Shown piece by piece: positions 1 to 4,968 of a stretch of DNA of 21,380 nt. The DNA is from Desulfobacterales bacterium. GTDB taxonomy: Bacteria > Desulfobacterota > Desulfobacteria > Desulfobacterales > JASJAZ01. The stretch spans positions 1-21,380 of the forward strand of contig JASJAZ010000050.1 of the NCBI GenBank assembly GCA_030066785.1, written 5' to 3'. The notes beneath the pieces are model-generated. The model had not been told where the DNA came from. It ran no database searches and saw nothing but the letters and a program-made list of their open reading frames with translations. The position numbers were made by a program, and so were the translations under genes. The stretch's first letter is position 1. Each line of letters starts with the position of its first letter.

Positions 1-258
1 AATACTTGTCCGCACAGCGCCCATGCCACATCCAATATCCACGCCCACGGCATTGGGAATAACCGCATTGGTACAGGCAATCACACCCCCGATCGGCATT
101 CCGTAACCCTGATGGCAATCCGGCATTAGGGCCACATGGCGAAATACCACCGGGTGCCTGGCGAGATCGGCCGCCTGGGCCATGGCACCCTCTTCTATGT
201 CTTGGCACCATGATTTTACCGGCACCTTAAAATTATCTTCATCTTTTATCCATTCCAT
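1..258 (-). CDS. rtcB: RNA-splicing ligase RtcB, N-terminal 86 aa only; the gene continues past the window start
   Basis: The reverse complement of 258..1 translates to MEWIKDEDNFKVPVKSWCQ...MPDCHQGYGMPIGGV...GVDIGCGMG. This matches the RtcB N-terminal metal-binding motifs (PDxHxGxG and GVDIGCGM). GGAG lies 8 nt upstream of the ATG, and the ATG overlaps the rtcA stop codon. Confidence 0.85.
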   Translation of the reverse strand, partial: MEWIKDEDNFKVPVKSWCQDIEEGAMAQAADLARHPVVFRHVALMPDCHQGYGMPIGGVIACTNAVIPNAVGVDIGCGMGAVRTSI

Positions 259-1265
259 ATTTCGATCTCCCATCTATTACGATCGTGCTCATTGATAGCA
301 AACTCGACATTAATAAACTTTTTGATAATCTCAGCATTGGTTATCGTATGTTTCGTTGGTGAAAGCGTTTGGAATTTACCACCACCCGCCAATGCCAGTG
401 GTATTAGCAGCTGATCAGCAAGGTATCTGCCCACGGGTACATTAACGGCCAGGTATTCCTGGACCGACCTTACAGTCCGGTTGGCCACCTTTTCCGCGGA
501 TACGCCTTTTTCTCCGAATCCTGTGAACACTTCCGTAACATTCTCACTTTCAATCTCTACCGTCAGTATGTTTCCGGGTCCCTGGGAATTTTCTACTTCA
601 ACGGCACTAAGCCGTTTTTTGTCCCATTCAAGCTTTTCACGAATAACTTTAAGCTCCCGGTTTGCGATATTGACCGGCAGGTTGGCCACTGCAGCACGGG
701 CGGTTTTGTTAATAATATTTCCACGCTCAAGCAGATCAATCCTGTTGAGGCCCGCCGGGTTAATCGATACCCTGAATCGGCCTCCGCCGGCGGGATAGAA
801 TCCGGGTTTCTCCAATGCAGCATTAATCCTGGGTCCCATTCGATTAATAATCGAAAGGAATGCCTTTTCAAGAAAGTCAAACGGCGGCGCAAACGGATTA
901 TGTGTACCCCCTTCCAATATAATTTCAGACGGTTTATCGGCAATTAACAGTGCCGGAAGTATGGTCTGAAAAACCAGGGTACAACTGCCGGCCGAACCGA
1001 TGGCAAAATGAAAATTACCCGCCTCGATGCTTTTCGGCTCAAAAGTAAAGGCCTGTGAGCCGATACGGTTGCCTTCGATGGCTGCCCGGCCGATTTCGAC
1101 AGCTGCATTGACGGCCGTAAGATGCTGCCGCATGAGGCCCGGCTTTTTGCGCCCGGCCCGGATGCTATGGATTGAAAACGGTTTTCCTGTGATCAGAGAA
1201 AGCGCAAGCGAAGTCCGCAGGATCTGGCCGCCTCCTTCGCCAAATGATCCATCTATGGTAATCAT
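246..1265 (-). CDS. rtcA: RNA 3'-terminal phosphate cyclase
   Basis: The 339-aa ORF starts MITIDGSFGEGGGQILRTSLALSLITGKPF, the characteristic RtcA N-terminus, and is co-linear with RtcA along its length. AGGAGA lies 7 nt upstream of the ATG. Confidence 0.9.
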   Translation of the reverse strand: MITIDGSFGEGGGQILRTSLALSLITGKPFSIHSIRAGRKKPGLMRQHLTAVNAAVEIGRAAIEGNRIGSQAFTFEPKSIEAGNFHFAIGSAGSCTLVFQTILPALLIADKPSEIILEGGTHNPFAPPFDFLEKAFLSIINRMGPRINAALEKPGFYPAGGGRFRVSINPAGLNRIDLLERGNIINKTARAAVANLPVNIANRELKVIREKLEWDKKRLSAVEVENSQGPGNILTVEIESENVTEVFTGFGEKGVSAEKVANRTVRSVQEYLAVNVPVGRYLADQLLIPLALAGGGKFQTLSPTKHTITNAEIIKKFINVEFAINEHDRNRWEIEIWNG

Positions 1266-1399
1266 TTTAATTTCTCCTTATAATCAGCTTCAACATATCT
1301 TCGCCCTGTCAAAAAGCTCTTACGAAAACCCGAACTTGATCCACCGAAGTTTATGAAACAGTAAACCAGAGATTTGGTTGTATTCCAATCTTACGACTT

Positions 1400-1434
1400 G
1401 AGGTGTTGCCCCGCCCAACTGACGGGGCAACCTC
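1400..1434 (-). other. GC-rich intercistronic stem-loop between the SPFH gene and rtcA
   Basis: GAGG-g-TTGCCCCG / CGGGGCAA-CCTC forms a 12-bp stem with one bulge and a 9-nt loop. It begins 13 nt after the SPFH stop codon. On the operon (minus) strand it is not followed by a U-run. Confidence 0.4.
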
Positions 1435-1446
1435 ATTTATTAATAA

Positions 1447-3284: not shown

Positions 3285-3304
3285 AATATTTTATCCGTTA
3301 TATT
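3285..3304. promoter_or_regulatory. Candidate RtcR enhancer (UAS) site 1
   Basis: AATATTTTATCCGTTATATT is a 20-mer repeated at 3321..3340 with 19/20 identity. Its ends, AATAT...ATATT, are an inverted repeat. It lies ~80-90 bp upstream of the sigma54 transcription start on the operon side. Confidence 0.45.
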
Positions 3305-3311
3305 TCATCCC

Positions 3312-3340
3312 TTGACTTAAAATATTTTATCCGATATATT
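3312..3340 (+). promoter_or_regulatory. sigma70-like promoter for rtcR
   Basis: TTGACT (3312-3317) is separated by 17 bp from TATATT (3335-3340). The predicted start is ~28 nt upstream of the rtcR ATG. The leader is AT-rich with no clear Shine-Dalgarno sequence. Confidence 0.4.
3321..3340. promoter_or_regulatory. Candidate RtcR enhancer (UAS) site 2
   Basis: AATATTTTATCCGATATATT is a direct repeat of site 1, offset by 36 bp (about 3.4 helical turns). It overlaps the spacer and -10 of the putative rtcR promoter. Confidence 0.45.
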
Positions 3341-3375
3341 ATTATAATATTTTATAAATAAATATAATTTTTTAT

Positions 3376-4968
3376 ATGAAAAATACAGTTGTCATAGGGC
3401 TGCTCGGCCCCACTCTGGATATGGGCAAACGGTCAAAACGATGGGAACGATGGCGTCCCACAGTGGCAGTGTGCCAGCATGAGGACTTGCTGGTAAGCCG
3501 CTTCGAGCTGCTATATCAAAAAAGATTCAAATCTCTCCAGGATCGTGTCGTTAACGATATTCAACATATTTCTCCGGAAACAGAAATTGTTTCACATCCC
3601 GTTGATTTTCGCGACCCGTGGGATCTCGAAGAAGTCTACGCCGCCTTGCATGATTTCGCCAAAGCCTATCCATTTGATCAGGAACAAGAAGAGTATCTTG
3701 TTCACATAACTACAGGAACCCATGTTGCGCAGATATGTCTTTATCTGCTTACCGAATCCAATTACCTGCCTGCAAAGCTTATTCAAACAAGCCCTTCTTC
3801 CGGCCAGAAAAAAGATACGGATGTCAGTGGTGAATATCGAATCATCGATCTTGACCTGTCAAAATACGATCGGATTGCCATGCGCTTCAGGCAAGAAATG
3901 GATGATGATATTACTTTTTTGAAATCCGGAATAGAAACACGTAACCAAGCCTTTAACGCATTGATTGAACGGATTGAACAAGTTGCCATCAATTCAACCG
4001 ATCCTGTTCTGATTACCGGGCCAACAGGCGCGGGCAAATCACATCTTGCCAGGCGTATTTTTGAGCTGAAAAAATCGAGACGACAGCTTAAAGGTGATTT
4101 TATTGAAATCAATTGCGCTACTCTGCGCGGTGATGCCGCCATGTCAGCCCTGTTCGGGCATAAAAAAGGCGCATTTACCGGGGCTACTCATGATCGAAAC
4201 GGGCTTTTACGGGCGGCAGACAAAGGAATGCTTTTTTTGGATGAAGTCGGCGAACTCGGCCTGGATGAGCAGTCAATGCTGCTTCGTGCCATTGAAGAAA
4301 GAAAATTTCTGCCCTTAGGCTCTGATGAGGAAACGGAAAGTGATTTTCAATTAATATGCGGCACCAACCGTGATCTTAAAACGATTGTAGCCAACGGTTG
4401 TTTCCGTGAAGATCTCCTGTCTCGTATAAATTTATGGACATTTCATATGCCGGGGCTGGCGGAAAGGCCGGAAGATATTGAACCGAATTTGAAATATGAG
4501 CTAGACCGCTTTGCGGAGAGAAACAATACACATGTTACTTTTAATAAGGAGGCCCGCAAGCAATTCCTTACCTTTGCGACTTCTTCAGAAGCGTTGTGGA
4601 CAGCAAATTTCAGAGACCTTAACGGGGCTGTTACCCGCATGTCCACCCTGGCCCCAGGTGGTCGCATCACCAAGGAGGTTGTTCAAGAAGAAATTTATAG
4701 ATTAGAGGTTTTGTGGCGTACTGCGGAAATAGACATCCATAATAAGTTGCTAAATGAGTTGATTGGTGCCGACAGAGCTGAGAAACTGGACCGTTTTGAA
4801 AGAGTTCAGCTGACCGACGTTCTTAAAGTATGTAAAGAATCCAAAAGTATGTCTGAAGCCGGTAGAAAGGTTTTTGCCGTTTCTCGCACAAAGAAACGGA
4901 AAGCCAATGATGCAGACCGACTTCGTAAATACCTATCGCGTTACAACATAAAATGGACCGATTTATAA
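3376..4968 (+). CDS. rtcR: sigma54-dependent transcriptional activator RtcR: N-terminal CARF domain, AAA+ domain with GAFTGA motif, C-terminal HTH
   Basis: The 530-aa ORF is co-linear with E. coli RtcR, including HITTGTHVAQIC, GPTGAGKS, GAFTGA, FREDLLSRINLWTF and the C-terminal NDADRLRKYLSRY. Confidence 0.9.
   Translation: MKNTVVIGLLGPTLDMGKRSKRWERWRPTVAVCQHEDLLVSRFELLYQKRFKSLQDRVVNDIQHISPETEIVSHPVDFRDPWDLEEVYAALHDFAKAYPFDQEQEEYLVHITTGTHVAQICLYLLTESNYLPAKLIQTSPSSGQKKDTDVSGEYRIIDLDLSKYDRIAMRFRQEMDDDITFLKSGIETRNQAFNALIERIEQVAINSTDPVLITGPTGAGKSHLARRIFELKKSRRQLKGDFIEINCATLRGDAAMSALFGHKKGAFTGATHDRNGLLRAADKGMLFLDEVGELGLDEQSMLLRAIEERKFLPLGSDEETESDFQLICGTNRDLKTIVANGCFREDLLSRINLWTFHMPGLAERPEDIEPNLKYELDRFAERNNTHVTFNKEARKQFLTFATSSEALWTANFRDLNGAVTRMSTLAPGGRITKEVVQEEIYRLEVLWRTAEIDIHNKLLNELIGADRAEKLDRFERVQLTDVLKVCKESKSMSEAGRKVFAVSRTKKRKANDADRLRKYLSRYNIKWTDL

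Follow-up and report, generated by a model that had tools for sequence, protein, structure and literature searches.

A conserved tRNA-like RNA and an SPFH protein as a putative pair in an RtcR/sigma-54 RNA-repair operon of a Desulfobacterales bacterium

We analysed an RNA-repair locus at one end of a 21,380-nt stretch of DNA from a Desulfobacterales bacterium (assembly GCA_030066785.1, contig JASJAZ010000050.1, positions 1 to 21,380), called the window in the following. Its sequence identifies the locus with high confidence as an RtcR/sigma-54-controlled RNA-repair operon of the class that combines a Band-7 protein, a b7a-tRNA and RtcB. As a whole, the locus is best explained as an RtcR/sigma-54 operon whose RNA and SPFH (Band-7) protein act as a pair serving tRNA repair, a reading to which we give a probability of roughly 0.6. 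Comparison with homologous loci indicates that the tRNA-like element and the "leader" behind it are one conserved structured RNA of ~440 nt, and the distribution of this RNA among genomes indicates that RNA and SPFH are a conserved core unit, tighter partners to each other than the RNA is to the Rtc enzymes.

The locus consists of a regulator gene and a divergent operon. On the plus strand, rtcR (3376-4968) encodes a CARF-type RtcR N-domain, a sigma-54 AAA+ activator domain and a C-terminal region (Pfam RtcR 283 bits, Sigma54_activat 172 bits). The NCBIfam equivalog RNA_repair_RtcR scores 816.9 bits on its product (cut-off 650), and PADLOC labels it RtcR--CARF_AAA_HTH. The operon lies on the minus strand, where coordinates are given in descending order. 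It has the sigma-54 promoter TGGCACatccgTTGC (3231-3217), the conserved RNA (3201-2763), the SPFH/Band_7 gene (2553-1447; 368 residues, Pfam Band_7 112 bits), rtcA for the RNA 3'-terminal phosphate cyclase (1265-246; Pfam RTC 264.8 bits and RTC_insert, NCBIfam equivalog 445 bits) and the first 86 codons of rtcB (258-1; Pfam RtcB 73 bits), a gene cut by the window edge. Thus, rtcA precedes rtcB, and the SPFH gene is upstream of both. The promoter, 145 nt from the rtcR start and between rtcR and the operon, is an exact TGGCAC-N5-TTGC, the single such match in the 21-kb window against 0.07 expected by chance, and the transcript is predicted to start near 3205. Motifs of the type TGGCAC/T-N5-TTGC/TTGA/TCGC/CTGC are also found ~35 nt upstream of the conserved RNA in six homologous loci, of which L001, L005, L007, L066 and L082 are linked to rtc genes and the sixth, L081, is from Escherichia coli; the upstream sequence of L023 was too short for this check. 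An initial annotation of the stretch had listed rtcR, a sigma-54 promoter before the operon, a 74-nt tRNA-like element, a ~440-nt spacer, SPFH, rtcA and rtcB, and each part was found at its place, the promoter being the sole exact consensus. Only the start of rtcB had to be moved, from about 241 to the ATG at 258-256, according to sequence reading and tblastn, which makes rtcB overlap with the end of rtcA. Residues 1-86 of RtcB are 91% identical to the L001 protein (tblastn).

This combination has been described before. According to Burroughs and Aravind (2016, doi 10.1093/nar/gkw722), as quoted by Wang and colleagues (bioRxiv 10.1101/312249), RtcB adjoins a Band-7 protein and a predicted b7a-tRNA, and the same quotation has the two proposed as a cofactor pair, the counterpart of Ro and Y RNA. 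The window has in common with these systems a Band-7 gene in an RtcB operon and an adjoining tRNA-like RNA, and on this likeness it is another member of the described class. The initial annotation had called the locus non-canonical; the arrangement is real, but it belongs to an already described class and is not an oddity. The mention of Band-7 partners of RtcB in the annotation agrees with the 2016 description, and its analogy with the rsr-yrlBA-rtcBA operon of Salmonella is the one drawn by the same authors. In the literature searched, the term b7a-tRNA was not found beyond bioRxiv 10.1101/312249, and no experimental work on the Band-7/b7a branch was found. Rfam holds no family for b7a-tRNA, and the element in the window was assigned by the quoted description. 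The abstract of the 2016 article reportedly speaks of "SPFH/Band-7 modules" with "a novel tRNA-like molecule" as potential scaffolding cofactors.

The locus can be compared with several better known systems. The E. coli K-12 rtc operon has two genes in the order rtcB-rtcA, no RNA and no SPFH gene. Common to K-12 and the window are RtcR with CARF and AAA+ domains, the sigma-54 promoter, the RtcA cyclase and the RtcB ligase. With the Salmonella rsr-yrlBA-rtcBA locus the window shares the divergent rtcR, the sigma-54 promoter, a tRNA-like noncoding RNA, an RNA-associated scaffold protein, RtcB and RtcA. Among Band-7/b7a-tRNA/RtcB systems, the layout with rtcR is common to the window and Burkholderia: on a chromid of Burkholderia multivorans (L082) we find rtcR, the sigma-54 promoter, the tRNA-like element, SPFH and rtcB. 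The window differs from these systems in that rtcA precedes rtcB. In addition, the window element has an acceptor stem of 3-4 bp inside a ~440-nt RNA with its own 5' and 3' domains, whereas the L082 element has a stem of 6-7 bp and no 5' domain detected by the covariance model R1 (described below). A 2026 study of the SPFH proteins of Pseudomonas aeruginosa places the gene for one of them, PaFlo8, inside the rtc locus.

That the RNA extends well beyond the tRNA-like element is indicated by its conservation. A DNA profile built from the region upstream of the window SPFH gene gave 69 nhmmer matches in 63 of 81 upstream regions, and the matches usually cover ~400 nt, reaching from ~110 nt before the tRNA-like element to ~250 nt after it. 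We aligned 35 leaders, including window 3201-2763 (alignment A2), and derived a consensus with RNAalifold to which the acceptor stem was added. In this consensus 89.7% of the cells form standard pairs, and sliding the 3' partners by 1-3 columns lowers this to 32-46%. Changes on both sides are seen in 143 cells; column shuffles give 52 +/- 6, and 143 was not reached in any of 500 shuffles. Covariation, assessed by shuffles and slid controls rather than by a phylogeny-aware test, supports 45 pairs in nine helices of what is a partial structure. The initial annotation had placed a tRNA-like element before a separate leader of ~440 nt; both are present, but the leader is not a unit of its own, being conserved and structured as one RNA with the element. 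Single-sequence folding of the tRNA-like region was uninformative (z-score -0.27), and the structure becomes visible only by comparative analysis.

Near its 5' end, the RNA has a non-tRNA domain (3177-3070; R1 61.2 bits, E 2.7e-14). Within it, helix P1 pairs ACGCACG at 3164-3158 with TGTGTGT at 3110-3104, four of its seven pairs being changed on both sides, and is followed by a small hairpin in the A2 consensus (3103-3092). After the tRNA-like domain (3070-2997) come two hairpins (2996-2963; GGGAU-UCU-AUCCC and UGAUCG-CUGUAA-CGAUCA). Single-sequence folds of the 35 leaders place one to three hairpins here in most homologues, with differing sequences. Further downstream, an inverted repeat gives a long-range helix with 13-nt arms at 2924-2912 and 2835-2823 (92% complementary, core GTTTTATC/GATAAAAC) that encloses a variable insert; in A2 (columns 383-390 with 504-511, window 2924-2917 with 2830-2823) seven of eight pairs are changed on both sides. 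Behind this helix lies a 3' conserved block, CAGCAC..GCCATGCAGCGCGTGGATACCGC (2823-2786), whose columns are near-invariant in A2 and which also stands out in the nhmmer alignment. A pairing between a GUGUGU segment and GUGCGUGG in the 3' block was rejected, as its signal was too G-U-rich and too noisy. A hidden protein gene in the leader was excluded as well: there are stops in all three sense frames and no frame is conserved with L001. An antisense "ORF cluster", with open reading frames in 74 loci, is an artefact that arises where DNA is conserved in a GC-rich genome.

The central domain resembles a tRNA closely enough for ARAGORN to call a 74-nt "tRNA-Leu GAG" at 3070-2997 and for the Rfam tRNA model to score 50.7 bits at 3065-3001 (gathering score 29). 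Taken by themselves, these two calls would suggest that a normal tRNA-Leu(GAG) gene, or a tRNA pseudogene in decay, lies near the rtc genes by chance. The Rfam alignment, however, is restricted to model positions 5-66. In the window the D, anticodon and T arms are intact, but only four of seven acceptor positions pair, including the three conserved GGA/UCC pairs (3065-3063 with 3003-3001). The same was seen in 47 homologous elements aligned by their T arms. All five pairs are formed in the anticodon stem of 44 elements and in the T stem of 46, and the acceptor pairs 7:66, 6:67 and 5:68 are always formed in A2 and covary, while 4:69 is formed in 21 of 34 sequences, 3:70 in 11 and 2:71 in 5. A stem of 3-4 pairs in the family contrasts with the seven of seven pairs in 421 of the 524 tRNAs from arrays found near homologous loci, the remainder of which is mostly due to end trimming by ARAGORN. 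Bacterial tRNA-Leu has a long variable arm; the window element has a variable loop of 5 nt (GAGUU), and CCA is not encoded. The anticodon loop is the sole part that varies freely: 40 seven-nucleotide loops hold 27 different triplets (U33 in 24 of 40, A34 in 13, A37 in 33, A38 in 32), loops of 6 or 8 nt occur in 7 of the 47 elements, and the window loop CUGAGGA corresponds to CUUAUAA in the closest relative, L001, with identical stems. Thus the "anticodon" is not conserved across homologues. The short acceptor stem, free anticodon loop, lack of CCA and 5-nt variable loop of the element exclude both a decoding tRNA and a decaying pseudogene. Covarying arms, supported in A2 for the D, anticodon and T stems (all five anticodon pairs being changed on both sides), are likewise unexpected for a pseudogene, and conserved non-tRNA domains flank the element. 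We regard a chance tRNA gene or pseudogene as very improbable.

Descent from the YrlA/Y RNA family, with the Ro partner lost, is hardly more credible. It would fit the operon context, which is like that of Salmonella rsr-yrlBA-rtcBA, and the tRNA-like domain, and two homologous leaders (L011 and L082) give weak matches to the YrlA model. Their scores, however, are 20.5 and 21 bits against a gathering score of 69, and at E up to 5 Rfam returned for two homologous leaders only tRNA, with YrlA far below threshold. Searched at E up to 10, window 2450-3400 gives tRNA alone and neither YrlA (RF02553) nor Y_RNA; a check of the leader with these models, suggested by the initial annotation, therefore succeeded for tRNA and failed for the Y RNAs. 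The tRNA-like part is a collinear cloverleaf, following the tRNA model through a complete anticodon arm, in which it differs from YrlA. No Ro/TROVE (rsr) gene was found in the window, as the annotation had noted: 11 of the 12 other open reading frames of at least 180 residues match housekeeping or regulator Pfam families, with 18737-19651 (minus strand) left unscanned.

The second line of evidence is the company that the RNA keeps. Homologous genome loci were fetched through an alignment of SPFH homologues, taking the best 80 of 587 genome matches, which with the window gives 81 loci. In the window the tRNA-like domain lies 517 nt upstream of the SPFH start, with a spacer of 443 nt between its end and position 2553, and homologous elements stand at the same position in 56 loci. 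In 72 of 84 sources, 37 of them outside the seed, model R1, which covers 86 positions of the non-tRNA 5' domain alone, gives a single match, which lies on the SPFH strand upstream of that gene; the model never matches inside tRNA arrays. Rtc genes stand beside SPFH in the window and in just 5 of the 80 genome loci (L001, L005, L007, L023 and L066, from Desulfobacterales, Desulfuromonadaceae and Omnitrophota). In about 70 loci of Planctomycetota and Acidobacteriota the RNA-SPFH pair stands without any rtc gene within 6 kb, and none of its other protein neighbours is conserved. The relation was also found from the RNA side. A metagenome scan with a Planctomycete-derived motif of the 5' domain gave 54 loci, 35 of which have at least 800 nt downstream, and in 30 of these 35 an SPFH match follows on the same strand within 1.2 kb. 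By the way they were drawn, both the genome set and the metagenome set are biased. In 26 of the 30 the SPFH gene starts ~500-650 nt past the RNA motif, and the other four hold only a protein fragment; in the remaining 5 of 35 the RNAs are truncated, except in L120, which has the full RNA and no SPFH gene. The initial annotation had proposed synteny in related genomes and covariation as tests of the arrangement. The SPFH gene with its tRNA-like element does recur in relatives and the arms covary, so that neither an unconserved element nor a pseudogene without covariation was found.

Several individual loci depart from the common arrangement. In three peat metagenomes (L087, L091, L107) the RNA 5' motif is followed ~400 nt on by the last 69 SPFH codons only, and of the RNA itself L087 keeps just the 5' half. 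The RNA copies in L109 and L130 break off inside the tRNA-like domain, and the full RNA of L120 lies behind a 26-gene tRNA array. Among the loci compared, a gap of more than 1 kb between RNA and SPFH is always due to insertions. In L007 rtcB itself lies between the two; L064 has a group II intron reverse transcriptase/maturase (3200-6000), L050 an AbiEii-type toxin gene and an ADP-ribosylglycohydrolase (1922-6000) and L026 an AbiEii-type toxin gene (3332-6000).

The SPFH protein is predicted to be soluble and without a membrane helix, since its hydropathy maximum (Kyte-Doolittle, 19 residues) is 1.46, in line with its earlier description as cytoplasmic. The AlphaFold model of the monomer (predicted local distance difference test score, pLDDT, 80.4) has three five-stranded beta units at residues 4-47, 71-114 and 138-181, underlain by a ~67-residue sequence repeat, and beyond them an alpha/beta stomatin-type SPFH core and long helices at 287-348. 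In structure the model is closest to stomatin, prohibitin, HflK/C, flotillin and QmcA. Large rings are typical of stomatin-type proteins, and because all good structural matches form large rings or cages, the window protein is expected to form an oligomer as well. It shares with stomatin-type proteins the SPFH/Band_7 fold followed by a long helix, but has no N-terminal membrane anchor, its N-terminus being modelled as beta units, and differs further by two extra N-terminal five-stranded beta units and by its linkage to an RNA. The major vault protein, with its chain of repeat domains, shoulder and cap-helix, may be a distant analogue. The window protein belongs to a large and well-conserved family, for which a search gave 5889 matches, many of exactly 368 residues and some named "slipin family protein" or "PA4582". 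The exact sequence of the window protein has no database record, and the PADLOC defence-system models gave nothing for it. A phage origin was rejected, since 50,697 phage records hold no full-length homologue and viral contigs gave no matches to the RNA motif.

In a part of the loci the pair is accompanied by long tRNA arrays in place of rtc genes. In 18 of the 81 loci (L002, L004, L011, L012, L013, L016, L018, L020, L021, L022, L030, L031, L036, L037, L040, L048, L059 and L079), 14-39 canonical tRNA genes on the same strand (plus) lie directly upstream of the pair, ahead of SPFH; the carriers are mostly Planctomycetota and Acidobacteriota, and rtc genes are not nearby. Such L-arrays of up to ~40 tRNA genes are known from several phyla, including Planctomycetes, with a patchy distribution consistent with horizontal transfer, and the L-array of Anabaena is induced by translational stress together with rtcB (PMC8421152, PMC10272220). 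In the Anabaena trcR mutant the tRNA operon, rtcB and the slipin gene alr0740 are all de-repressed, alr0740 by 42-fold (PMC10272220), and the "hypothetical protein" gene alr0739 by 71-fold (PMC10272220, Table 1); alr0739 may overlie an RNA like that of the window. The main text of PMC8421152 and PMC10272220 makes no mention of an SPFH or slipin gene as an array neighbour. The window itself differs from the array loci in that it has no array and a single tRNA-like domain only, and from the Anabaena regulon in having RtcR and sigma-54 where Anabaena has the repressor TrcR.

Some features of the arrays stand on their own. Metagenome loci L085, L090, L099 and L105 have arrays too, and tRNA genes are also found downstream of SPFH (8 in L037, 13 in L058). 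Array tRNAs with the leucine anticodons UAA, UAG, CAA and GAG (for example, L004 2565-2639, 2643-2717, 2854-2928 and 3362-3436, and in other arrays) are mostly 73-79 nt long and have full acceptor stems and a short variable loop, the lack of a long variable arm in leucine tRNAs being unusual for bacteria, and the CAG isoacceptor is usually 83-85 nt. Truncated acceptor stems in array tRNAs were excluded: ARAGORN adds 2 nt, or CCA, after the acceptor stem, and in the correct register the arrays are canonical.

If RNA and SPFH act as a pair, the following sequence of events would account for the locus. RtcR would activate the sigma-54 promoter at 3231-3217, and the transcript would open with the ~440-nt RNA and its tRNA-shaped central domain, followed by SPFH, rtcA and rtcB. 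RNA and SPFH protein would then pair up as Ro and Y RNA do, an SPFH oligomer holding the RNA by the tRNA-like D/T "elbow" and the 5' domain. The resulting particle could act as a platform, or as a place where damaged tRNAs are presented or held along with the enzymes for their repair or replacement, and could recruit RtcB; the partners served would be RtcA and RtcB in the window and the long tRNA arrays in other phyla. That RNA and SPFH oligomer form a particle for tRNA repair or maintenance is a tentative proposal drawn from analogy, to which we give somewhat less than even odds. A wider version is rather unlikely, namely that the b7a-tRNA is the middle domain of a ~440-nt RNA that forms with a ring- or cage-like SPFH protein a vault- or Ro/Y-like ribonucleoprotein, an end-module of repair operons and of horizontally spreading tRNA arrays, with the extended RNA and the array link both previously undescribed.

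Several points weigh against this reading of the locus. The dependence on RtcR at this locus, a discrete RNA, its binding to SPFH, oligomerisation and the role in repair are all steps that we infer. The b7a RNA is given as unvalidated as of 2018 in what bioRxiv 10.1101/312249 says of it. The 5' domain was not detected in the Burkholderia and E. coli versions, the latter keeping only a T-arm-like piece, and the Anabaena slipin alr0740 may belong to another SPFH subfamily than that of the window. The RNA is found without exception on the 5' side of the SPFH gene or operon and on its strand, which a purely cis-acting leader would explain too. In such a case the tRNA-like fold, bound by SPFH, RtcB or a tRNA-binding factor, would control read-through, processing, stability or translation. 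The distances agree with this, the 3' conserved block lying usually 168-398 nt from the SPFH start codon. So does conservation between window and L001 through the whole 650-nt untranslated region to the ribosome-binding site, which is 50-92% in 40-nt bins, except for a bin with a 24-nt indel in the P1 loop. The part behind the RNA (2762-2554) is included, with the lowest identity there in bin 2750-2711, and is conserved in blocks with some distant loci: GCTCAAA..GCACTCCGCA and CCCAACGG, near the start codon, are common to the window, L011, L012, L014, L004 and L058. In Salmonella, in contrast, the Y RNAs follow rsr in the operon name, whereas the window RNA lies 5' of its protein gene. On the other hand, no conserved terminator or anti-terminator was found, terminator-like sites being no more frequent than in shuffled sequences. 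The insertions between RNA and SPFH in L007, L064, L050 and L026 indicate that close coupling of the RNA to the SPFH start is dispensable, and L120 keeps the full RNA without the SPFH gene. A leader function is also compatible with a role in trans. We consider a mainly cis-acting leader the most serious alternative, at perhaps one chance in four.

The initial annotation had suggested for the tRNA-like element the role of a built-in substrate, decoy or feedback RNA. The freely varying anticodon loop likewise suggests an alternative in which anticodon nucleases meet the tRNA-like domain as a decoy or sensor that spares the real tRNAs, or whose 2',3'-cyclic-phosphate fragments feed back on the CARF domain of RtcR or alter the fate of the mRNA. 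In the Salmonella literature, RtcR is described as responding to fragments of tRNAs, and competitive inhibition of an anticodon nuclease has been proposed for YrlA. The loop is the sole hypervariable part of a highly conserved domain, with its 27 triplets in 40 loops, and the module is found both with rtc genes and with tRNA arrays. However, with A34 in 13 and U33 in only 24 of 40 loops, and with 6- or 8-nt loops in 7 of 47 elements, the loops are unlike those of real tRNAs, and their variation looks like relaxed constraint and not like mimicry. Most carriers have no RtcR gene near the pair, and YrlA is not cleaved in Salmonella. Moreover, the RNA lies downstream of the RtcR-dependent promoter and is therefore not the primary signal. 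Such a decoy or sensor thus seems improbable, and clearly less likely than a cis-acting leader, and we keep to the RNA and SPFH as a pair serving tRNA repair.

Upstream of the sigma-54 promoter, by 50-110 nt, a repeat search found two direct repeats of 23 nt at 3282-3304 and 3318-3340, which are 91% identical and 36 nt apart and may be a binding site for RtcR. Both repeats hold the motif CGGATAAAA (3291-3299 and 3327-3335), which is found again in both arms of the long-range RNA helix (2824-2832 on the minus strand, and inverted at 2915-2924), and its relatives GTTATCCG and CGGATAAC occur at 2928-2935 and 2891-2898. The recurrence may be chance, or a sequence common to the DNA sites and the RNA helix. 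At the 5' edge of the RNA in Planctomycetota (A2 columns 8-24, e.g. L036 5315-5335), where the sigma-54 promoter is absent, TTTTCAAGCAAGG is conserved, with TTCTTTCAAATGC as its counterpart in the window; this motif may be a promoter element or a processing site. Within the operon, the minimum-free-energy fold of the 181-nt gap between SPFH and rtcA has a strong GC-rich hairpin, GAGGUUGCCCCG...CGGGGCAACACCUC (1400-1434, minus strand), 12 nt past the SPFH stop codon and with no T-run behind it. The remaining genes of the window are ordinary chromosomal ones, for a GntR-family regulator, an isocitrate/isopropylmalate-type dehydrogenase, pyruvate kinase, a class A penicillin-binding protein, PqiA/MlaD-type proteins, a lipid A acyltransferase and a glycosyltransferase.

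The Burkholderia and E. coli versions of the system show further peculiarities. In L082 (4600-4656), just 5' of the tRNA-like element, lies a second, minihelix-like unit with the acceptor-like stem GGGGCGC/GCGCCC and the T-arm CCGGGTTCGACTCCCGG, followed by ACC. In 1633 of 5426 complete E. coli genomes a slipin gene is followed by a nucleotidyltransferase gene between yjbD and lysC (L081 4474-6928; L137 3376-5829). This slipin has 32% identity to the window SPFH protein over residues 2-346, and rtcR is not adjacent. Upstream of it is a 530-nt unannotated region with the sigma-54-like motif CTGGCACGCTTCTCGCA and a reduced RNA, which consists of a GCGTGTTCCG block and a T-arm-like GGGTTCGATTCCC and from which the D and anticodon arms are absent.

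The window locus by itself adds little beyond one further instance of a described class. However, three points may go beyond the literature searched: the multi-domain RNA with its truncated acceptor stem, the primacy of the RNA-SPFH link over that to the Rtc enzymes, and the link to long tRNA arrays. They provide material for experiments, namely a defined RNA whose helices have been tested, a covariance model for the non-tRNA part and a conserved unit of RNA and SPFH. Culturable carriers are at hand in Singulisphaera acidiphila, Adhaeretor mobilis, Lacipirellula limnantheis, Burkholderia multivorans and, with the reduced RNA, ~30% of complete E. coli genomes. The link to tRNA arrays connects the pair to the translational-stress regulon of Anabaena. 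If the wider, rather unlikely version of the proposal is true, the repair and the replacement of damaged tRNAs would share one RNA-protein device.

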